Counted from the stretch's first letter, positions 8,107-61,209 are shown. The stretch is DNA of 64,000 nucleotides from Mobula hypostoma (GCF_963921235.1 NC_086097.1:58282001-58346000), one strand, 5' to 3'. Notes: generated from the letters alone by a model not told the origin. Numbers and translations are program-made.

Positions 8107-11100
8107 TTAACTTACTGACAGCCCTTTACTACCCTGGCATTTGGGGCAGCAATGAAGGCCCTTGGCCATCTTCTCTATTGTGCACCAGCTGTGGTTCAGT
8201 GTCCTCATTTCTGCCTCTAAGACATGACACCAAGCTGACATTGGCCTCCTGCATTTCCTCCGCCCTTCAGAGGTGCATTGAATGGTGATGGAGTTGGCCT
8301 CTCTTCGTATCATGTGCCCAATCCATTTCCAATGTTTCCTCATGATGATTGTGGCCATGTCCTCTGATGACACTGAAGGAGTAGGGCGTGGTTGGAGACC
8401 TTTCTTTGCCAGAAAATACAAAGGATCTTTCGGAGGCTCCTGGTGTGGTGGAATGACGAGAGCTTGGCCAGGTCACTGTCTGACATACACCAGCATTCTG
8501 ACCTGTACAAGAGTGTGGACAGAACACAGCTTCACCTCTTTGCGGACGTTGTACTTGGTTGATCCCCATACGTCGCTCATTGTTTCTAGCTTTGCTGAAT
8601 CTGTACTGGATGTCAGTCTTGGTCCCACCATCCAGATGAATGTTGTTGCCCAGATAGGTAAATCAGCTGGTCCCGGGTAAGTCGATGCCATAAGCCTTCA
8701 TGGGAGGATGAAACTACATTAAGGGTCATGGCCTCAGTCTTTCTCTGGCTAACTTTGAGACTAAATTGTCCACCAAAGGTACATAGGTTCTGAGTTTTCT
8801 CTTGCATGTGCAGGTGTGTATGTGATAGTATTTGAGGTCATCCCAAAGCCGAGGTCTTCTAAAGTAGAGAATAGAGTCCGCCTAATGCCTCTCTGCTTAC
8901 CTTTCACTGTTTACGTCATAGCCCAGCCAGTCACCAGGTTAAACAATATCACCGACATCACACAGCCTTGCCCGACTCCTGACTTGACTTCAAAACTCAA
9001 ATTGCAGTCCGCAACGGTGCAGGTGAAATTAACATAGAAACTCTGGATAAGCTGGACAATTTTGGAAGGGATCCCATATGATCTGAGAATTCGGCGGAGG
9101 CTCTCTGTGCGGATGCTATCAAAAGCCTTTTCAAAGTCCACAAAATTTACATACAGTTGTCCCTGCCACTCAGAGCACTGCTCTGTGATGTTACGCAGCG
9201 TGAAGATCTGGTCTACACAGACTGTGCTTCCTGAAGCCAGCTTGCTCTTTCCACAAGCACACATCAACAGCGTCCGTAATCCAATGGACAATGACCTTGG
9301 CGAGAATCTTGCTGGGCACTGACAAAAATATGATATCACCCCAGTTGTTGCTATCACTTAGTGCTCTTTTCTTAGGGATCCTAACAATAACACCCTTTGT
9401 CCAGTCCTTGGGTACTTGTCCCGTTCCCAAATTATAATAAACAGTGGTTGCTGGATGCCTGCTGCATCTTTTGCTTCAGCTGTGAAAAGTTCAGCGTTCA
9501 AATTGTTATGTCCTGGAGCTTTGCTGTTCTTTAATGACTTAATTGCAGCAACAATCTCTTCTTTCTTGGGTGGATCTGTGTTGATGTCGAGATCCTCTGC
9601 TGCCTCGTGTATGTGAGGTTCTTTATCCGGTGGTGGTCTATGCAGTAATTCTCTGAAATATTCCATCCATTGTGCTTCTTGCTCTTTTCCACTTGTCCAA
9701 AAGCAGACTGTTTCAATTTCTCATGGGACCACTGGATCTGGCCTGGAACTTCCCGCATACCAATTTTGAAACCTTGTACATATTTTGTTGATCACTTAAT
9801 TGGCTGCTGTTTCCAGTCTCCTCTGCAAGGTCTTCCATGTAGACTCTCTTATCCTTTTCTATAAGTCTCTTTGCTTTCTTGTTAGCTTCAGTGGAAGCTG
9901 GTTGGTTTCACTTAAATTCATGTTGACTTTGCTTCTAACACTTTCTTCTTAATTTAACGTCTTTCTTCTAAGGCTGTCCCTATTTCCATTCTTTGTTCTT
10001 CGTTGTCCTCGTTGTCCACAGGAATGGTACCGGAGGATTGGAGGGAGGTGAATGTTGTCCCCTTGTTCAAAAAAGGTAGTAGGGATAGTCCAGGTAATTA
10101 TAGACCAGTGAGCCTTATGTCTGTGGTGGGAAAGCTGTTGGAAAAGATTCTTAGAGATAGGATCTATGGGCTTATAGAGAATCATAGTCTGATCAGGGAC
10201 AGTCAGCATGGCTTTGTGAAGGGCAGATCGTGTCTAACAAGCCTGGTAGAGTTCTTTGAGGAGGTGACCAGGCATATAGATGAGGGTAGTGCAGTGGATG
10301 TGATCTATATGGATTTTAGTAAGGCATTTGACAAGGTTCCACACAGTAGGCTTATTCAGAAAGTCAGAAGGCATGGGATCCAGGGAATTTTGGCCAGGTG
10401 GATTCAGAATTGGCTTGCCTGCAGAAGGCAGAGGGTGGTGGTGGAGGGAGTACATTCAGAGTGGAGGATTGTGACTAGTGGTGTTCCACAAGGATCTGTT
10501 CTGGGATCTCTACTTTTCGTGATTTTTATTAACGACCTTGATGTGGGGGTAGAAGGATGGGTTGGCAAGTTTGCAGACAACACAAAGGTTGGTGATGTTG
10601 TAGATAGTGTAGAGGATTGTCAAAGATTGCAGAGAGACATTGATAGGATGCAGAAGTGGGCTGAGAAGTGGCAGATGGAGTTCAACCCGGAGAAGTGTGA
10701 GGTGAAACACTTTGGAAGGACAAACTCCAAGGCAGAGTACAAAGTAAATGGCAGGATACTTGGTAGTGTGGAGGAGCAGAGGGATCTGGGGGTACATGTC
10801 CACAGATCCCTGAAAGTTGCCTTACAGGTGGATAGAGTAGTTAAGAAAGCTTACGGGGTGTTAGCTTTCATAAGTCGAGGGATAGAGTTTAAGAGTCGTG
10901 ATGTAATGATGCAGCTCTATAAAACTCTGGTTAGGCCACACTTGGAGTACTGTGTCCATTTCCAGTCGCCTCATTATAGGAAGCATGTGGAAGCATTGGA
11001 AAGGGTATCGAGGAGATTTACCAGGATGCTGCCTGGTTTAGAGAGTATGGATTATGATCAGAGATTGAGGGAGCCAGGGCTTTACTCTTTGGAGGGAAGG

Positions 11101-12790
11101 AGGATGAGAGGAGACATGATAGAGGTGTACAAGATAATAAGAGGAATAGATAGAGTGGATAGCCAGCTCCTCTTCCTCAGGGCACCACTGCTCAATTCAA
11201 GAGGACATAGCTTTAAGGTAAGGGGTGGGAAGTTCAAGAGGGATATTAGAGGAAGGTTTTTGACTCAGAGAGTGGTTGGTGTGTGGAATGCACTGACTGA
11301 GTCAGTGGTGGAGGCAGATACACTAGTGAAGTTTAAGAGACTACTAGACAGGTATATGGAGGAATTTAAGTTGGGGCTTATATGGGAGGCAGGGTTTGAG
11401 GGTTGGCACAACATTGTGGGCCGAAGGGCCTGTACCGTGCTGTACTATTCTATGTTCTATGTTCTTTCCGGTTCTATATCCTAGCCAAGCCTCTCTGCTC
11501 TCCTTGAAGACTGTGGGAATCTGTTTCCACATTGTGTCGATCTTCTCTACCGATACATCCATGTCAAGGTATTGCAAGGACTGGAATCTGTTCTTAAACT
11601 GAATGGTGAAGGAAGATCTTACAATCGTGACCTTAAGCTTCTCAACTTCATAATGTTTTTGCACATGTGTTCTGGTCCCAGTGCTTCACAGCTTGAATTT
11701 CATCACTGCTACAAAAAGCTGGTGACCACTTCCTGTATCTGCTCCTCTCTTCACCTTTACATCCTGCAAGGATTGACTCCACGTACCATTGATCATCAAA
11801 TAGTAATCTGGTTCTTGTCACGTCCACTAGGTGAGCACCATGTCGGTGTGGATTTCTTAGTGTGGAAAGATGGTCCCTTTTATGATCAGATTGTTCACAG
11901 CACAGAATTCCACCAGTCTTTCACCATTTTTACTCATCAGTCTACATCTATGAGTGCCCATGACCCTAGCGAATTGTGAGTTGTTATTTCTCACTTCGGC
12001 ATTCAGATCTTCCGTGACGATGATTATGTCATGGGCTGGCATTAACCTCCAATTGCAGCTGTTCATAGAAGATATCTTTTTCTTCAATGTCACTATCATT
12101 AGTTGGACCATAGCACTGGATCACTGTTATGTTCACTAACTTCCCTTTCAGCCTGACTCTCATCAGCCTACTGTTGATTGGTTTCCACATCAGCAAGCGC
12201 TTCTTAATGCCTTTCTTCAAAATGACAGCCACGCATGCCATCACAGTGCTGACCGGCTTCCCTTCCTGAGTATAAATCTGTTTCACCAGTTGCTTCCTTT
12301 AGTCATTCAGACCCTGTTCATCTGCTTTCACTGACACACAGTATAGGTAGATATTAATGACACATTTCTGCAGTTATTTGTGCTAGCTTGCCAGAGTTGT
12401 ACATTCCAAATTTCAATTTTGGTCTTGGTCTTGGTGGTGTTCAGGGTTTTCTTCATTGTGTTAGTAGCTTCCTCTCAGTTTTCACTACTGTCAATCATGC
12501 AAGCCCCAGATGGAGTCTCACGGATACTGTCACACGCAGATATAGAAAGATTCTTCATTGCTGTTCACTTAACAGTTTTTTTGTCCAGACAGGGTTGTTA
12601 GCCCTGAGCTGAACCCCCAAATCTTGAGGACCAGTGGACCATTTTAGTCTGTCCTCTACCCCACCTGTTTGGTACGAGTGACCCTACCAAGAGCCAAAGC
12701 CCAAGGCCCTGATTCCAGCCAACGTAGCTCTCCTAGACATTGAGGCACACAAGCCTCCAATCCTTACAAGAAGGTTGTGGTCTTGAAGGA
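8107..12790 (-). mobile_element. RTE-clade LINE, near full length but decayed, interrupted by a CR1 at 10001-11466
   Basis: Minus-strand pieces: IQCYGPTND and DLNAEV (APE), LKNSKAPGHNNLNAELF, DWTKGVIVRIPKK, VDFEKAFDSI, SGVGQGCVMS, WKWIGHMIRR. RTE-type 5' UTR at ~12590-12790. Confidence 0.88.
10001..11466 (+). mobile_element. Young 5'-truncated CR1 LINE with an open RT-domain frame
   Basis: 493-aa ORF 10003-11484 with NYRPVSL, QHGF, YMDFSKAFDKVPH, GVPQGSVLG and FADNTK. TATGTTC tail. TGTTCTT is duplicated at 9994-10000 and 11460-11466. Confidence 0.96.
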
Positions 12791-33290: not shown

Positions 33291-34715
33291 AATACATTGT
33301 GTTTGAGCATTTATTCAAAAGTGAATGGATGCAATGTCTTAATAACTCATTTATCAGGCCCTGGGTTCCAGGCGAGGAAGCATGGATTGAAAGCATTGCA
33401 AGGTCTATTTATTCCTGTAATATTAGGTATTTGCCTGCCTGAAAGTGTAATAAAAGCAGCCACTTTAATAGTGAATGCATTAGGCCTGGCAAGTTGTAAT
33501 TTAGCAGACAGTGCTTGTTATTAGACTGAATGGTTCCAAGTTTTGGAATCCATTCTGTTTCTCTACAAGTTAAATTATAGGCTGCAAAACAAAAAGAACA
33601 CTTAATGTTGAAGATCAGTTTCAATTTTTATGCTTGTATTGTGTGCAAGGTTGTGGAAGTTTACAGCAGCATAATTCAGGCCACATCTTGTATAATTTCC
33701 GCTGTAATAATTGTAAATTGTGCTCAGCAATGTTCTTTCCATTACTGGTCCTACATGGCTTTGATCTTTTCACTGTCTGCAGAGAATTACAATAATTTGC
33801 AATGCATTATGAACTGATCTCTTTAAATCTGAGTAGGTCCCAAAAATAAGATTAAGACTGAAATACGTTTTATTGTTAATTATGTGCCTTTGATTGTCAA
33901 AATGTATTAATAGTAATGAAATACCCCTTTTGAAATTCATATCATCTGATGTGTATATTCTGATCAAAAAGAGGCAAAACCTGGGCCGCTGTACCTCCCT
34001 CTGCAACTGAAGATCCTTCCCTTCCTCACTGAGAGACCACAGTCTGAGTGGATTGTTAATAACATCTCCACCTTGCTGATAATCAATACTGGCGCACCTC
34101 AAGGATGTGTGCTTAGCCCACAGCTCTAATCTCTCTACACCCATGACTGTGTGGCTAGGCACAGCTGAAATGCCATCTATAAATTCGCTGATGATACGAC
34201 TACTGTTAACACAATTTTAAATGGCGATGAGAAGGTATACAGGAGTGAGGTAGATCAGCTAGTTGAGTGATCTTGCAGCAACAAACTTGCATTCAGCATC
34301 AGTAAGACTAAAGAATTGATTGTGGACTTCAGAAAGGGTAAGACGAGGGCACACACCAGTCCATGTTGAGGGATCAGAAGTGGAAAGAGTGAGTAATTTC
34401 AAGCTGTTGGGCGTTAACACCTCTGAGGATCTATGCTGGGCCCAGCATATCGATGCAGTTACAAAGAAGGCACAACAGCGGCTATATTTCATTAAGAGTT
34501 TGAGGAGATGTCAGCAAAGACACTTGCAGATTTGTACAGACGTACTGTGGAGATCACTCTAACTGGTTGTATCACCATCTGTATAGGTGGCTGAGGGGCA
34601 CTGCGCAGGACTGAAATAAACAGCAAAAAGCTGTAAACTCTGTCAGCTCCATCATGGGTACTAGCTTCCCCAGCATACAGTACATTTTCAAGGAGGAATG
34701 GCCTATCACCTAGAG

Positions 34716-34963
34716 TGTTCTGTTTAGTATCTTCAAAACATTAAACAAATTCAAAGGAAGACACGGGAATCCGAAATGTGAGTCTAACTTTAAGTTTACT
34801 TTAAGCAAGGCACACGAGTACTATGTGGTAGCGTGCTGACATAATCAATTCATGTATTTTTACACATAACCTGTTATGAATTATTTAAATGAGCAAGCAT
34901 GCTTAATCAACCAATATATATACAAGATTATTCAAATATTACTGAAATATTAAAATCACAACA
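34716..34963 (-). repeat. 3' LTR of the Gypsy element
   Basis: TGTT...CAACA, collinear with 38890-39878, next to the PPT. Confidence 0.88.
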
Positions 34964-35286
34964 CTCCTACCTGCTTAGCTATAAATTCCAACTCAATAGG
35001 GAATGCATCTCAACTATATACACAGTATACTATATAAAACAATTACTAAATACAGACATCTACAGCATTGTAAATTTTAAATTGTCCCATTCCAGCCTAA
35101 AGATTTAATAACTATAGAGAATTTCTTGCTCTTGTGGGGTAATGTCTTTCCTGACAAGGGGGGAATCACTCTGCTTGGCAGGTGAGACCTGTGGCTGTGA
35201 AGACTATCTCAGGTTCTGGGGCCTCCTCCATGGTGTTTGTAGGAGTTGACTCCGAGACTGCAGGAAGTGGTTCTGTTAGTTCTGGA

Positions 35287-35851
35287 CGTCATTCTTCTTC
35301 CTTTTTCTTCTTCTAGTTTGTGCATCTTGATCTTGGGAAAGTGCATCTACTTCACTGGAGTATTCTCTTATTAATCCTTCTACTGCTTCCTTTACGATCT
35401 GATTTCTCCTCTTGGTTTCCTCATCCACAACATCATCTGATGAATCCTCTGTTTACTTATCTTCATTGACTTCTTTCTTTTTGGCATTTCATTCATCCAG
35501 CTGGGCTTTGGTCTTTGCAGCTACTTTGACAAGTAGCTTTTTGTCTCCCACTTGAAGCTCATGCAATAACTTTAATGCACGCAGAGTAGATTCTGGTTCT
35601 TTGCACTCTCAAATGCCAAATGCTTGCAACTTTTCTGAAGCCCCTTGAACTTTCTTCCAGCTTAAAATGATGCCACATTTTGCAAGTAACTGACTAATTA
35701 ACATATCAGAAGCTTTCTCAGATAAGTTGCCTACAAAAACTGTTGTATTCAGACCATTGCTTTTGTCATTTTCACATTTCCTCTGAGCTGCATTGTCCCC
35801 CCTTGGTCCAATATGCTTTTGAACCAAAGGCACAGAGGTTGGCACCACCAC
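35287..35851 (-). pseudogene. RBM25: Processed RBM25 fragment (RRM domain and following helical region) inside the Gypsy element
   Basis: Translation VVVPTSVPLVQKHIGPR...TTVFVGNLSEKASDMLISQLLAKCGIILSWKKVQGASEKLQAFGI*ECKEPESTLRALKLLHELQVGDKKLLVKVAAKTKAQLDE*NAKKK...DEETKRRNQIVKEAVEGLIREYSSE is recognisable as RBM25. One frame, no intron, three in-frame stops. Confidence 0.93.
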
Positions 35852-36596
35852 CTGTTTGCCTTCTGCTGGGCAATAATTCGTGGTGTTCGGCATGAAGACT
35901 GTTGCGGCATCATCCAATACATTTCTTAATTCACTTTCAGTTGGCTTCATTGCAGGGGATGTGACATGTAAATTGTGGATGGACCTCCAACCAATCATGT
36001 CCCCATGATGCTGGTCCTCCTGTTTTTACCACATACAAGTTCAAAGTGGCTTGTTGGTTGCTGGGTTTCACTGTCACGAATGCTGATCCCACAGGAGTTA
36101 ACTCTTCTCCAGTATAAGTTCTTTGTTGGATATCTGAAGGCTTCAGATTAGCACTTTTGAAATGCTATTCAAATTCATTTTGAGGAATTGTCATGGTCCG
36201 GATCAGGGTCCCTTTAAATTTACCTTGTTTATGTTACGATCCATACCGTTGATTCCCTGTTTTCCCGTGTCCCTCGACTTTGGTGATTAGAGGGAATTAA
36301 TGCTCGGCTGAACCGATAGTTTATAAATCTCCGGCTTTCAGCCGTTCGGCACGAGAGCGTCTGCAAAGTCACGGCGTGCCAATGTCATGTGGCCGAAGCA
36401 AGCCTAGTCTCCGCTGAAGCGAGTGCCGGTAATTCGCCCTTCCTCACCGGAGCAACCCAGTCCAGTTACCTTGCCGAAGCGAGCCTGCAAAGCTTCCTCA
36501 CTGAGGTGGGTCCATCAGTTAACCCGCCGGAGGGAATCAAGAACCGCGGTCTACTGTTCCCGGGTCGAGTCGAGAGCTCACCACTACCTGGAGGCT

Positions 36597-36902
36597 CCAA
36601 GTCAAGTCCTGGCTCCAGGGGCATTCAAGTTCCAAGTCAAGTCCTGGCCCTGGCGGCATTCTAGCACCAAGTCAAGTCCTGGCCCTGGTGGCAATCTAGC
36701 ACCAAGTCAAGACCTGGCCCTGGCGGCATTCTAGCACCAAGTCAAGTCCTGGCTCTGGCGGCAATCTAGCACCAAGTCAAGTCCTGGCCCTGGCAGCATT
36801 CTAGCACCAAATCAAGTCCTGGCCCTGGCGGCATTCTAGCACCAAGTCAAGTCCTGGCCCTAGCGGCTTCCCAGTTCTGAGTCAAGTCCGGGCCTTGGCG
36901 GT
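36597..36902. repeat. 35-bp minisatellite, ~8.7 units
   Basis: Unit CCAAGTCAAGTCCTGGCCCTGGCGGCATTCTAGCA, starting every 35 bp from 36597 to 36877. Confidence 0.95.
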
Positions 36903-37045
36903 CTGTGATTCCTGTCCTACCCCCTTGTCTGAATCCCTTCTCTGCCCCTCTCCCTTCTAGCCCTCGTCTGCAGCCCTCGCCTGCACTTCGGTCTAGTTCT
37001 ATGGTCAGAGCTAGATAGGTACTGTCTGGTGTTCTTTCGTGTTGA

Positions 37046-37250
37046 TCTTGTCTTGTCCTTGCCTCCGTGGGGTAAGTCTGGCCGTCTTGCTGTTACCCCG
37101 CGGGGAGTCATGTCTTGTCTTGTCCTCGCCTCCGTGGGGTAAGTCTGGTCGTCTTGCCGTTGCCCCGCAGGGAGTCATGTCATGTCTTGTCCTCGCCTCC
37201 GTGGGGTAAGTCAGGCCATCTTGCCATTGCCCCACAGAGGGTCATGAGTC
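37046..37250. repeat. 67-bp tandem repeat, 3 units
   Basis: GCCTCCGTGGGGTAAGTC recurs at 37061, 37128 and 37195. Confidence 0.92.
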
Positions 37251-39034
37251 CCTGCCCCATGTCCTGTTCCCAGGGAGGGGTCCCGGCTCTCTGGTCTGTG
37301 TACATGTCCATGGTTCTACGTACCTGCTCCCCGAGACCGAGGCTGTATGTTCCCATGTTCCTCCTCTCCCTAGCCCATGTCATGTCCTTGCCTGGTTCTG
37401 GGGTCCGAGCCCAAGGCAAGACCCAGGTACCGGGTCCTTGCCCAGTCTCTGGCTCAGAGTGCATACCCTAGCCTCTTCATGTCTCCTTTAGTTCTGGGAA
37501 CCGATTCCGAGTCCAAGCCCAGACCCTTGGTCCCAGCCCAGTTGTAGTCCTGAATCCTTGTCCAGTTCGCTATTTCCTGCTCCTGCCTTGCTCTCCTGGT
37601 ATCGAACAATAAACTCAATTTATTTAACCTCACAAGATGTGTCTTGCATTTGGGTCCACCCTTGCTCCCTATTGCCCCGCCAGTGTGACAGGAATGATAG
37701 AAACAGCTGAACCAGTGTTCAATTCCAAACTAATTAATTTGTCATTCAGTTCTGGCATAAGCCATATTGCTTGTCAATTATTAGTTTTCATATTGTCAAT
37801 CCCGAGGGTACCCAGTCCTGCGTCACTCTCATCATCATCAGGTTCTCATCAGATTAATGCTCTTTTTGAAACAGCAACTTGGCATTTTATTTTTTTTCTC
37901 TTTCCTGTAAAGTCTAATTTTCCTCTGACTGACAGGCTCTTTGTTCCATTTTCTGAAAGTTTTGCCTTTAAATTGGCATTGATCTGGTGAATGTGAGCTC
38001 CTGCCACAGCAGTGACATACTTTGTCTGGCAAGCCCAGTTTCTGTTTAGATGCTGAAATTTTCTTCACACTCACTTTCATTCCTGACTGCAACTCAACTG
38101 CATCTTCAGCCTGCTGTTTCCATTGATACAGCAATTGCCACTGCTGTTTTAAGTGTCATTAGTACTTCAGTTAGGAGCTATTTTTGAATGCTTTCTTGTC
38201 AGGTTCCATAAGCTAAACGATTCTTCAGTGCATCATTAAGCCCCATCACTGAACTGGCAAAGTTCACACAATCTCCTCAATTCAGCAACATGTGATGAGA
38301 TGGACAGCCCTTCTTTTTTACTTCACTTATGAAACTTAAAGAATTCTGAAATCAATCATAGTTTTGATTCCATATGTTCATGCACTACTTTTACAATATC
38401 AGCAAAGCTAATTTTGGATGTTTTCATTGGGGCAGTTAAACTTTAAAACAAACTGTATACCTTTAAACCAAATACACTCAGCAAAATTGGTACTTGTTTC
38501 TCATTGGTTATTTCATTTGCTTCAAAATATTGTTCAATTACCTCCATATACATATTCCAGTTATCTTTTGTGTAATCAAATGTGTCCATTTTCCTGATGC
38601 AGCCAACCATTTCTGCTTTTTTAAAAATGATATTATCACTTGGTACTCAGTCTTTATGAATCTGAGAATTCTTCTGTTTTCCGACTTTATTTTTAAAAAC
38701 TCAATCAAGTCTTCCCTTCCAAAGAACATGTGCTGCACTGCTATTTAAAAGTTGACCATCTCTGCAAGTGCTGCGCTGTATTGCTAACTCACTGTTCCTC
38801 GCTGCATTTTTTTTAGTTTGAACTTCTCGCTGCACTTCAATATGTCAATAGCTGTCTCAAGGTCATTTTTAAAAGTACCTTTTCACTACTATTATGGTTT
38901 GTAACTTCAAAACATTTAACTAATTCAAAGGAAGGCATGGGAGTTCAAAATGTAAGTCCAACTTTGAGTTTACTTTAACAGAGGGGCATGCATCATGTGG
39001 TAGTGTGATGACGTATGCAATTCACGTATTTATA

Positions 39035-39730
39035 TGTAGCCCCCCCCCCCCACCGGCAAGCCTCAGGGTCGCTCCGCTTGCTGTCATCTAGGGAAATAGC
39101 CCTCGGCCCCGCCAAAATGGGTAATCAGTTTGTGTGATGTACCCCACCCCACCCAAATAACAGACAATACACCAGATACGATTAAATGATATACAGTTTA
39201 TAGATATTACTGGAACTATATAATTAATAGAGAATAAAATATAAAAAGGAAAATAAAAGGCACCACACTTATCAAAGTTCAATCTCTTCGTGCACAAACA
39301 GTTGGAGCTCAGGACCCTTCTTCTTCACCCTGCCACCCCTCGGACCACCTCGACCGGCTGCCTGGGACCTACAACTGTGGTCGACCAGACGCTCCACACG
39401 AGTCCGTCTCCGTCCCCTCTCCTCGCTGAACGCCCCGCTCGGGGTCCGACCCTGTTAGCAGACTCACAGCACCTGGTCCATCCTCTGTCTCTCTCTGCCA
39501 CCTTTTGCCCCCAAACCCTGCGCAAACAATATCTTACCGGCTCACCAAAAGTGTAACAACTATCCCAGTTGGTTCATTCGTCCTCTTATCAATAGATAAT
39601 CCAAAACAAACTACTAGCGGGATGACTTTCTCAGCAGTTAACATAACAAAGAAGCCCTTTCAATTATAACATAACAAAGAAGCCATTTTAATTAGACTAC
39701 ACAGTGACATAGAAAAGGAAACCCCTTACA
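39035..39730. mobile_element. Probable solo LTR of an unrelated family
   Basis: TGTA...TACA termini and flanks TATA / TAAA (4-bp TSD with one mismatch). Absent from the partner LTR. Confidence 0.75.
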
Positions 39731-39778
39731 TAAACATATAACCTGTAATGAATTATTTAATGAACAAGAATGCTTAAT

Positions 39779-39794
39779 CTCTCTCTCTCTCTCA

Positions 39795-39840
<46 letters not shown>
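39779..39840. repeat. (CT)n(CA)n microsatellite
   Basis: Seen directly; the partner LTR has only a short (TA)n at this position. Confidence 0.97.
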
Positions 39841-39841
<1 letters not shown>

Positions 39842-40424
39842 CTATGAACAAGATTACTGAAATATTAAATGCACAACACAGGACATGCCACCTTCTCATT
39901 GCTATTGTGGGGAAGGAGATACAGAAGCCTGAACGCACAAACTCAATGATTCCGGAATAGCTTCTTCCCCTCTGCCATCAGATTTCTGAATGGATATTGA
40001 GTTTGTGAACACTACCTCACTACTGTTTTCTTCTCTTTTTGCACTAACTTTAAAAAATTATGTATATATACACACACACACTGTAATTTACAGTTTCAAA
40101 TTATTATGTATTGCAATGTACTGTAAGTCTGCCACATAACAAGTGCCACTGATATCAAACCCGATTCTGATTCTAATAAGATTGCATCAATATGAAATAG
40201 ATTTGATTCTAATGGAGAATCATTATTAGTGTAGAAACTGAAAGTGAGATTTTAAATTTAAAGATGCAAGTGTGATTAATATCAGTAAATGACAGGTAAC
40301 ACAGAATATAAACTCTTCTGGGTTATTTTATATCAAGATTAGAGCCAATAGTTAAAAAATATTGTCTCTTCTAGAGTATTTCATTACAATGTAGCTTAAC
40401 ATTAATGCATAATTCTATCTAACT

Positions 40425-40700: not shown

Positions 40701-42514
40701 CCCATTTCACATCAGACATTGGACTGTAGTGAAATAACTGATTCAGTAATGTTGATGACATAAGTCATGATTAGAAAGAATTGACTAAGCAACCACTCAG
40801 ATGTGAAACATGGGATAAAAATAAAGGGTCAGTGTGACTTTCAATACTAGTTTGAAAATAAAACAATATGTTGAGAAAATATTTCAAAAGAACGACAGAG
40901 CAAGATACGTAAACAAAATATGTGATGCACTTAAAAATGCCACTTAAACTTACGTTTCCATTACAGTTTTGACAAAGTTTGAGTTGCATAGCAGAATTAA
41001 GAGTTGGAAAATTCCCTGCCTTGTTTTAAGTATTTCTTTTTATATGTCATGCCTTAAATTGTTGGGTTTTAATTTCCACATAAAAACAATCAAAATGTGA
41101 TTGAAAAACAATGAAAATCATCAGATACTATGTACTGAAATGGAGTTTTTAACATATCCACTCTTTTTAAAGCAGCGGCCTCAGTCGTAAGTTTTTATTT
41201 CGGGCTAAAGTTTAGTTTTAGATATTTTGAATATCGCACATTTGCTGAGGAATCTGGCTTTCCTTGTCAACTCAAGACTATCTTTCCAACTTTATTTTCA
41301 ATTAAATCAATGCCAAAGTCCTTTGCCTTTTCAGAGTGAGATCACTGGGATGTTACATAATTATTTCAATTATCTCATCAATTCTCAGTGTTCATTTGAT
41401 ATTTTGGTTAGCAAAAAACCTGGATGATTATTTGACTTGAAATGATATTATGGCAATGAAAGTTAGTAATCAAGTAAATTCCCTGCTGCATAAAGTTTTT
41501 GTTCCGATGCTGTCATACTGTCAAGGCTTACAATTGGGCAAAATCAGTAAGAGTCCATGCTATGTGTATACTATACACCTTATGTTTCCTAGCAATAAAG
41601 TGTTTCTGTATTCTATGTTGTCAGGTGCCAATATATTTCCAGGACAGGATTCTGAAAGAATCTTATTTCACAGAAATGAACTATCTCATGGATGCTGATG
41701 AAGATAAATTATTTCATGCTAAATTAACTTCTATGAGATAGTTTGTCTTCACCCTGAACCTGTCACTGAATTGCCACTTTGTTCAGCACTGCTTGTGACT
41801 GTCGTCACAATATTGTTGTACTCTTCGCTGTTATAGTATTGGCTCCTTTCAAATCTCAGCAGTGAAATTGCACTTCCTGCATTGTTAGGGACATTAACAT
41901 GATTTCTATGTAAGGAAGAATGATTACATCTCATTCTCATCAGTAGATTGTAATGCTACACTCAATTTCGCCCATATGCCATGGTCCTGATTATCAATCT
42001 ACCAACTTTATCACTCTCTTAACTTTCAGCTGGTTTGTAAGCACAGCCAGAGTGGGTCACGTTGGTTCATGCCTGCTATGTTGGCAACTATCGTGACTCT
42101 TTCATCCTGCTCGAGATCTTTCATCTTTATTCCAAGTCAACTGTCAAGCTTAAGGAGGGCAATAACAACTAAAAACTTCCAAAAGAGCTCATGCCTCCTG
42201 TTAGAGTTCCGGGCAGTTTGAATCAAGATTCATTGAGTTTTACAACAATGATGCACAGAGATTACAGCTGGTAGTAAGTGGCAGGGTAAAACCTATTAGG
42301 AGAGATAAAACCCAAACTCTTATGATCTCTTTCTATCAGTGTTTGCCATGTAAGAGAATGCTAACAAAGTTTCAGGAGGTGTGAAAATAGTTGAGGTCAT
42401 GGATGTGATAAAAATGGACATCTTATATGTACTGGAAAGCTTAGATTTGATATATTCTATAAACTAAACAGCTTGCAACTTGGATTGCACAGGACAGAGA
42501 AGCTTGTCATGATC

Positions 42515-43362
42515 TTCCTGTCTTCCCTGGGTAGCTGCAAGCGGGCCAGAAAGTGGTACACATCGGGAGCACCAGACGCAGTATATCACCCCAGCCGACT
42601 CACACTTCCACCATTCCACCATTCAGGGCCCCAGACAGTCCTTCCAGGTGAGGCGACACTTCACCTGTGAGTCGGCTGGGGTGATATACTGCGTCCGGTG
42701 CTCCCGATGTGGCCTTCTATATATTGATGAGACCCGACGCAGACTGGGAGACTGCTTTGCTGAACACCTATGCTCTGTCCGCCAGAGAAAGCAGGATCTC
42801 CCAGTGGCCACACATTTTAATTCCACATCCCATTCCCATTCTGACATGTCTATCCACGGCCTCCTCTACTGTAAAGATGAAGCCACACTCAGGTTGGAGG
42901 AACAACACCTTTTATTCCGTCTGGGTAGCCTCCAACCTGATGGCATGAACATCGACTTCTCTAACTTCCATTAATGCCCCACCTTCCCCTCGTACCCCAT
43001 CCGTTATTTATTTTTATACACATTCTTTCTCTCACTCTCCTTTTTCTCCCTCTGTCCCTCTGACTATACCCCTTGCCCATCGTCTGGGTTCCCCCCCCCT
43101 TGTCTTTCTCCCCGGACCTCCTGTCCCATGATCCTCTCATATCCCCTTTGCCAATCACTTGTCTAGCTCTTGGCTCCATCACTCCCCCTCCTGTCTTCTC
43201 CTATCATTTTGGATCTCCCCCTCCCCCCCCACTTTCAAATCTCTTACTAACTCTTCCTTCAGTTAGTCCTGACGAAGGGTCTCGGCCAAAAAATGTCGAC
43301 TGTACCTCTTCCTAGAGATGCTGCCTGGCCTGCTGCGTTCACCAGCAACTTTGATGTGTGTT
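42515..43362 (+). mobile_element. Penelope-like element 3' end: GIY-YIG endonuclease C-terminus plus pLTR
   Basis: ORF 42648-42974: FTCESAGVIYCVRCSRCGLLYIDETRRRLGDCFAEH...VATHFN...LQPDGMN. A pyrimidine-rich tract follows, then a CTGACGA hammerhead motif at 43269. Confidence 0.92.
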
Positions 43363-59620: not shown

Positions 59621-61209
59621 TTTTCCAATGGCATCCATTAACACTGCTGTGACATTATCCAGTACTTAGTCTGCTTTCAGTTGACTGTATTGCAGGGGAT
59701 GTGGTGTGCAAATGGTGGACGGATCTTCAATCAAGTTGTAGCTATCACAGCCCTACAATGAGTGACCCTCCTGTTTTTACCACATACAAGCCCAATATGG
59801 CCTGTTGGTTGTTTAAGAATGATCTTTTCTCGACAATTTGTTCTTAGTTTGATATCTGCAAGCTTCAGTTCAGTATCTTTGAAATGCTATATTCAAACTC
59901 ATTTTGAGAAATGACTGGAACAGCCAAGCCAGTGACCAATTCCATTTTAATTAATTTGCTGGTTGTTTCTGATGTAAGCCTTATTGCTGGTCTCTTATTA
60001 CTTTATCGCATTGTAAGTCTTAAGGCTACTCAGTCCTGTTCCACTCTCACCATTTTCAGATTTTCCATCAATGGCATGCAGATTAGTTCTCATTTGAAAC
60101 TGCAACTTGCTCTTTGTATGTGTCTTACTTTGTAGTACTTTCTGCCTGTTTTGCGTTTAACCTGCATTGTTCCGGTGTATGCGAGCCCCTGCCTCAGTGG
60201 TAACACAATTGGTTTGGCCAGTCGAGTTTCTGTTTAAGCGTCGCAATTTGTTCAAGGTTAGTTTCATTCCTGACCGCAACTCAATTGCATCTCTGGCTGC
60301 TGTTTCCATTGATACATCAATTTCAACTGTTCTTTTAAATGTGAGTCTTGCTTCAGTTAGCAGCCATTTTCAAATGCTTTCTTCTAAGATTGCACAAAAT
60401 AAATAATCTCTCAGTACACTATTAAGCCCATCACTGAACTGACAATGCTCGAACAATTTCTTCAATTCAGACATGTAAGCTGAAACAGATTCCTTATTTT
60501 TGATTCTAATTATGAAACCAAATGCGTTCAGCAATCAACAATGATTTCAGTTCTAAATATTCCTGCATTTATGTTCACGATATCAGCAAAGCTCATTTTG
60601 GCTGGTTTGGTTGGAGTAAATATGCTTTTCCACCCATTGCACTCAGAAACTCTGGCACTCATTTTCATTGGCTATTTTATTTGCTTCAAAATACTGCTTC
60701 ATTTGATCACCCAATTATCTGTTGTGCAATTAAACATGTCTATCTATCTGGTGTAGCCAGCCATTTCTGCTTTTTTAACATTTATTATTGTTATCACCTG
60801 GTACTCACTGGTTATGAACCTGAGGCCGTACTTGTTACTTGCTGATTTTGTCCATTTCCTGCTTTTCTTTTTGAACTCTAACATCACTTTCCCCTTCTGA
60901 AGAAAAACCTTCTGCACATCAACAGGTTAATTTTAAAACTCCCTCATTGCCACTGTTATGTTTTGTAACTCCAGAAACTAATTGAAAGAAAAACAAAAGA
61001 ATCAGGATACCTGCCTATTTAGTTTTTCTTTTCCTTTTTTTTTTACAAAGGCACTCACAAATGACTTGGTGATGTGGTGATGTAATGACATATGCCATTC
61101 ACCAACTTACATATAATCAATCCATCATGAATTATGTAAACAAAGAATGCTTAGTCGAACAATATGTTTACAGTCACTCAGACATTACTGAACTATTAAG
61201 TACACTACA
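59621..61209 (-). mobile_element. Truncated Gypsy element related to 34716-39878 (5' LTR, PBS, gag, protease)
   Basis: LTR 60954-61209 (TGTT...TACA) resembles the other LTRs. PBS-like TGGCAATGAG lies next to it. gag starts ATGGCTGGCTACACC at ~60764. pol text VLDNVTAVLMDAIGK is at the left end. Confidence 0.85.

Follow-up and report, generated by a model that had tools for sequence, protein, structure and literature searches.

The closest described systems among animals are LTR-mediated retrocopies, whose mechanism was defined by Tan et al. 2016 (PMC5131818). In the available text of that article, such retrocopies consist of an internal, intronless piece of an mRNA flanked by discontinuous parts of an LTR element, with microsimilarity at the joins, no poly-A tail or target site duplication (TSD), and mostly sense orientation; two retrocopies of flies are present at more than one site and were re-copied as non-autonomous elements. 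The same text includes a vertebrate case, in which a HERV captured the host mRNA of FAM8A1, again with microsimilarity. Two plant systems are also related, namely maize Bs1, which the accessible part of its source presents as an LTR element with transduced pieces of host coding sequence (PMC13317346), and the TR-GAG elements, non-autonomous LTR elements that are named in PMC13570524.

In this article, we describe a family of Ty3/Gypsy-type elements that carry a piece of RBM25, and which resemble the retrocopies in the available text of Tan et al. 2016 in having an intronless piece of several exons, LTR-element flanks and microsimilarity, and in lacking a poly-A tail and TSD. The literature search, which covered subscription journals poorly and left repeat databases outside its scope, found no capture of RBM25 by an LTR retrotransposon, nor any description in work on the LTR elements of stingrays and other batoids. 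We conclude that a spliced RBM25 mRNA was very probably captured by reverse transcriptase (RT) template switching, after which the chimera spread and its cargo was shortened.

The element and its RBM25 cargo

Unless a prefix is given, coordinates refer to the window, that is, the whole 64-kb stretch of DNA analysed (C1:58282001-58346000); the genome searched comprises 3.48 Gb and the finding lies in repeat-rich DNA. Positions 39878-34716 of the window (minus strand) are confirmed as a Ty3/Gypsy-type element with RBM25 cDNA in place of the RT/RNase H/integrase core. The original prediction gave the order on the minus strand as 5' LTR, gag knuckle, protease, RBM25, integrase tail, polypurine tract (PPT) and 3' LTR, and this order was found as described. 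The features are listed below from the 5' LTR onward, using exon labels of our own (X, Y, K, A, B, C, D, E, F, G).

38890-39878, minus strand: 5' LTR, starting with TGTTGTG, with a (TG)n(AG)n expansion; contains a later insertion
39035-39730: later insertion in the 5' LTR, 696 nt, with TG...CA ends and a 28-nt tandem duplication; missing from the other aligned copies
38876-38889, minus strand: position of the primer-binding site, decayed; other copies have a TGG-starting motif here; no tRNA matched
37976-38610, minus strand: gag, broken, with ATG at 38610 and a CX2CX4HX4C (CCHC) knuckle at 38017-37976
37691-37770, minus strand: N-terminal part of protease, the active-site motif decayed and read by eye
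36189-37690: later insertion splitting protease, 1,502 nt, with TG...CA ends and a perfect 5-nt ATTCC duplication
35910-36188, minus strand: C-terminal part of protease and protease-RT linker, running on into RT in parent-type copies
35900-35909, minus strand: place of the proposed 5' switch, a 7-nt microhomology (parent linker/end of host exon X) followed by the final 3 nt of exon X
35852-35899, minus strand: RBM25 48-nt alternative exon K, 39/48 nt against host C1:99832633-99832586, with canonical splice sites
35319-35851, minus strand: RBM25 exons A, B, C and most of D, including the RRM; joins at 35681/80, 35623/22 and 35462/61
35288-35318, minus strand: stretch best read as remnants of the start of RBM25 exon F and of exon G, with 19/20 nt matching the F start (E 0.023); the proposed 3' switch lies in a purine stretch
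35097-35287, minus strand: integrase C-terminal tail, out of the RBM25 frame, matching the integrase end of parent-type copies L079, L081, L084 and L071
34964-34975, minus strand: polypurine tract, with equivalents in other copies
34716-34963, minus strand: 3' LTR, ending in AACA
34600-34715: right half of the older repeat hit by the element, the left half lying beyond 39879

Both LTRs have TG...CA ends, and the pair shows 82% identity over 190 aligned nt (K2P 0.21). The Pfam match of gag is weak (DUF7083, E 0.006, below the cut-off), and a Pfam search of the N-terminal part of protease gave no match. The two later insertions make up about 2.2 of the 5.2 kb, and without them the element measures ~3 kb. 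The insertion in the 5' LTR, probably a solo LTR, has no match among the other fetched loci; the one in protease holds tandem arrays of a 35-nt unit (x8.7) and a 67-nt unit (x3), and this same insert recurs at locus L055, where it adjoins another copy of the RBM25 family.

The older repeat interrupted by the element, which we take to be LINE-like, has four uninterrupted copies that join both flanks, and the window differs from them by a 5-nt surplus. The TSD of the window element is identical at 2 of 5 positions, the best among the other copies at 4 of 5, and clear TSDs are rare among the 20 extended loci; the window copy is likely a single integration with a decayed TSD. It is old, decayed and dead.

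Elsewhere in the window, a short piece at 61127-61199 is 74% like the LTR of the RBM25-carrying family. The long open reading frames of the window look LINE-like or spurious, and LINE-type repeats are abundant there. A 508-aa stop-free stretch at 9958-11484 (plus strand), which resembles a LINE reverse transcriptase and is presumably CR1-like, is probably a young copy, and a 153-aa stretch at 42513-42974 (plus strand), which we take to resemble a Penelope-type GIY-YIG end, has a 46-nt inverted repeat (42559-42604 / 42666-42711).

The translated cargo matches Pfam RRM_1 (E 8e-6) and has 65% identity with gar RBM25 across 187 aa, the top vertebrate RBM25 matches lying at 64-65%. We located the host RBM25 gene at C1:~99.79-99.84 Mb with the C-terminus of gar RBM25; among the database homologues its product is closest to a shark protein, from which we take the host to be a cartilaginous fish. 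A Pfam PWI search tried as a route to the host gene gave other exons, presumably SRRM1- and PRPF3-like to judge from their translations, and not RBM25. Four large exon matches, each with E <= 4e-12 against a 120-kb host stretch, lie in gene order and are therefore not due to chance. Over 622 nt the cargo is 86% identical to the spliced host exons (A 146/171, B 49/58 and C 140/161 nt; D ~89%). It begins with the final 10 nt of X, which are followed by K (48 nt), A (171 nt), B (58 nt), C (161 nt) and D, all with canonical splice sites; five host exon joins are thus crossed, with ~19 kb of host introns gone.

The original prediction had placed the RBM25 segment at 35851-35287; the identity was right and the bounds were wrong, since the cargo starts at 35909, 58 nt further upstream, and includes exon K and 10 nt of X. 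The description of the segment as sense-oriented, in one frame and without introns proved correct, there being no frameshift over 570 nt and no intron left, with three stops present. That the segment might derive from a single exon is contradicted by the five joins of this copy and the eight of the long copies. For its final ~32 nt (35318-35288) the best reading is that deletions left the beginning of exon F and a few bases of G, a view based on the match to the F start listed above and on the context that less deleted copies provide.

Exon K of the host and a 30-nt exon Y (~C1:99837505-99837476) both precede the RRM. Exon K is identical at 14/14 aa in an isoform of shark RBM25 and is absent from all others of the 200 database homologues fetched. 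One contig of run X16, for which an RNA label is assumed, spans the equivalent of 35298-35899 with K to D unbroken, and its loose end points to exon Y between X and K; Y is present in the host gene and missing from the chimera. With exon K kept and exon Y skipped, it follows that one splice isoform was captured. At one site in exon D (C1:~99819285) host RBM25 has Ser, whereas the copies share Ala with the shark protein and so keep the older state.

Dispersal, size classes and selection

A query across both joins returned 2,905 first-look candidates in the genome; 40/40 scored candidates match most of the query, 39 besides the window at 83-85%. Exact 25-nt motifs occur genome-wide 118 times for the chimeric 5' join, 66 times for the 3' join, 294 times for the parent-type sequence and 257 times for the end of exon D, and the reversed control of each motif gave 0 matches. 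Identical joins at dispersed loci mean that the chimera was mobile, in agreement with the suggestion that it could have spread as a gene-carrying non-autonomous family. RBM25 lies upstream at 10 of the 12 loci fetched with the 3'-join motif, and at two there is none. The exact 5' motif is present in 5/49 independently chosen copies; scaling by such fractions is noisy and yields ~1,150 (118 over 5 of 49), ~1,500 (257 over 5 of 29) or ~12,000 (257 over 1 of 48), which we extrapolate to a family of at least ~1,000 copies, perhaps a few thousand.

Outside the assembled genome, 5 of 8 contigs examined, out of 506 from run X1 (labelled as another organism, its RNA label a guess), bridge the 3' join and lend support to the predicted junction. 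Runs X6, X16 and X21 contain RBM25 pieces only, without Gypsy flank, and are not counted as evidence of absence. None of 83 database matches could be recognised as an annotated chimeric protein, and a look-up for look-alikes in other genomes returned none. In one further copy (L022:1501-2972), the linker and most of the cargo are duplicated in tandem.

Out of 90 loci, eight without RBM25 and four duplicates were dropped and 78 were kept; 67 of these could be classed and 64 were aligned over at least 480 nt. The 67 comprise 8 long, 17 medium and 35 short copies and 7 other or unclear ones. Long copies contain exons X to G with eight exon joins, the centre of F being lost; medium copies have also lost the end of D and E, and short copies, including the one in the window, most of F as well. 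The two outer joins are the same in all three classes, which are set apart by deletions within the purine-rich part. The original capture spanned nine RBM25 exons, and the window copy is a deletion derivative. The F|G join is read across in 7/8 long, 12/17 medium and 0/35 short copies, and the first 100 of the 257 matches to the end of exon D comprise 76 of the deleted form, 22 undeleted and 2 mixed. A tree of 57 cargo copies and the host is star-like, with a mean terminal branch of 0.10, and does not separate the classes, so it is the nesting of the structures that suggests a deletion order from long through medium to short.

The copies differ by 12-15% from the host, by 18% from each other and by ~10% from the star-like origin. 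LTR pairs, obtained at 8/20 extended loci, diverge by 0.15-0.38, several values being inflated by non-homologous ends; the cleaner pairs give 0.15-0.27. At the slow substitution rates of sharks and rays, these divergences mean that the copies are tens of millions of years old or more. Among 64 copies, a single one is free of both stops and frameshifts over the 570 nt considered, and decay is seen in every copy sampled. Trees of gag and linker leave chimeric and parent-type copies unseparated, the mean distances (gag/linker) being 0.247/0.225 between chimeras, 0.262/0.211 between chimera and parent and 0.251/0.190 between parents.

Nineteen differences from the host are shared by at least 80% of the copies and all are silent, as would follow from continued evolution of the host gene under constraint. 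Within the cargo, rare variants fit the neutral expectation, intermediate-frequency non-CpG variants comprise 7 replacement and 3 silent changes, and diversity is flat by codon position. The ratio of 0-fold to 4-fold transversions is 1.18 (0.94-1.48) in the cargo and 1.14 in the protease half of the element, against 0.78 (0.57-1.10) in gag, where the hint of constraint is not significant and the ratio is confounded by exchange with helpers. Judged from these substitution patterns, the cargo looks like a neutral passenger.

These data bear on a possible benefit of the RBM25 part to the element, either as an in-frame Gag-protease-RRM fusion that packages RNA or as host-like RNA that escapes silencing. 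The 5' join lies in the frame of the linker, a frame kept in 60/66 copies, the deletions take the RE-rich part but leave the RRM untouched in most of the copies sampled, and the family is very large. Against this, an in-frame join has a 1-in-3 chance, the sampling favoured RRM-bearing copies, and the substitution ratio, the codon-position diversity and the replacement and silent counts given above show no purifying selection; we consider a useful cargo quite unlikely. With the cargo evolving neutrally, a role of the RRM fusion is unsupported despite the in-frame join. It is likewise unlikely that the cargo drove the success of the family, by RRM-fusion packaging or by shielding from small RNAs, and that the copies acted back on RBM25 through small RNAs or gene conversion; the shielding would arise since silencing of the element would also hit an essential splicing gene.

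Joins with the parent element and the route of capture

Of 30 loci for which the Gypsy linker was the sole basis of selection, 22 lead from the linker into RBM25, seven into RT and one into a deleted integrase. Parent-type copy L081 has RVT_1 (E 8e-10), RT_RNaseH (E 6e-16) and rve (E 3e-5, below the curated cut-off) in order; the pol order protease-RT-RNase H-integrase is thus present in the parent, and its RT-RNase H-integrase block takes up ~2.4 kb between the same two join points. The sequences on either side of the cargo are discontinuous parts of a single LTR element. At the 5' join, 7 nt are common to parent and host mRNA in the same codon phase. At the 3' join, ~8 purines are common to host exon G and the parent integrase tail, the tail is out of frame, and the switch is placeable only to within ~8-13 nt. 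Both joins thus lie in microhomology between host and parent, which supports the two template switches with a spliced RBM25 transcript put forward in the original prediction. Two parent-type copies (L080:5270-5360 and L144:1455-1525) have integrase deleted and joined to the purine motif of the chimera's 3' join; they are possibly recombinants of parent and chimera, or mark a deletion hot spot.

On the strength of established retroelement biology and of the available text of PMC5131818, the capture may be pictured as follows. A Ty3/Gypsy particle would have co-packaged spliced RBM25 mRNA with its own RNA. RT would have departed from the element within the integrase tail, at the shared purine-rich stretch, copied ~1 kb of RBM25 sequence that includes eight exon joins, and re-entered the element at the 7-nt shared stretch in the protease-RT linker, with the result that ~2.4 kb of RT, RNase H and integrase would be gone and the LTRs, primer site, PPT and gag-protease kept. 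RT-bearing relatives may then have copied the chimera in trans, in one old burst, and deletions between purine-rich microhomologies would have shortened the cargo from long to medium to short, the shortened forms eventually outnumbering the original.

An RBM25 cDNA could also have entered an integrated element by DNA-level repair or recombination, since end-joining leaves microhomology joins as well and the two routes cannot be separated from the sequence alone. We regard this as very unlikely, because the cargo is sense with respect to the element and takes the place of a clean internal block, and the same pattern is reported for LTR-mediated retrocopies in the available text of PMC5131818. 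Extremely improbable, and largely refuted, is that a LINE-made processed pseudogene of RBM25 landed in an already deleted Gypsy element and then spread: although LINE-type repeats abound in the window and later non-autonomous spread would look alike, the cargo is an internal piece of mRNA with both ends cut inside exons, exact parent/host microhomology is found at both joins, neither a poly-A tail nor an insert TSD, which the original prediction had named as signs of a LINE-mediated insertion, is present at either cargo end, and among the 8 candidates of a genome search with the RBM25 C-terminus the only matches were three exons of the host gene, with no pseudogene of the RBM25 3' end. Capture by template switching thus remains our preferred reading.

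Comparison with known systems

TR-GAG elements keep gag and protease, have lost RT, RNase H and the integrase core, and are not known to carry host cDNA in the gap. The RBM25 element is similar in retaining gag and protease without RT, RNase H and the integrase core, and differs in that the gap is filled by host cDNA. Bs1, in contrast, is a plant element with pieces from three genes and is called a new chimeric gene in a title cited in the accessible part of PMC13317346, whereas the RBM25 family has one gene, a neutral cargo and sampled copies that are all decayed. The capture of FAM8A1, as far as the available text of PMC5131818 describes it, involved a retroviral carrier and a product described as a processed pseudogene, not a large family.

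A second multi-copy family derived from a host gene is indicated by 119 Pfam Sds3 (SUDS3-like) matches among 150 scored. A carrier common to SUDS3 and RBM25 was considered and rejected, as 0/14 fetched Sds3 loci (L153-L166) match DNA of the RBM25 element, and SUDS3 therefore has a different carrier. If the cargo did drive the success of the RBM25 family, the two families together would mean that host-gene capture had more than once led to the success of a retrotransposon in one vertebrate genome. Whether a host-like cargo aids escape from silencing is a question that the large copy number opens to testing.

The copies preserve an old splice isoform of RBM25 together with the older Ala residue, and their nested deletions may serve as a natural archive of how RT deletes sequence at purine-rich microhomologies. 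In annotation they can be mistaken for paralogues of RBM25 or for LINE-made pseudogenes, and they can disturb the mapping of RBM25 reads.

Compared with the retrocopies of Tan et al. 2016, the mechanism of capture is known, and it is the scale that is unusual; the deletion history is clear and signs of function are lacking. A host cDNA captured by an LTR element can grow into a large repeat family in a vertebrate, where the available text of PMC5131818 has single loci or few sites, and its supplements may add others: here, in a cartilaginous fish, one capture of RBM25 gave rise to about a thousand or more copies with nested deletions.
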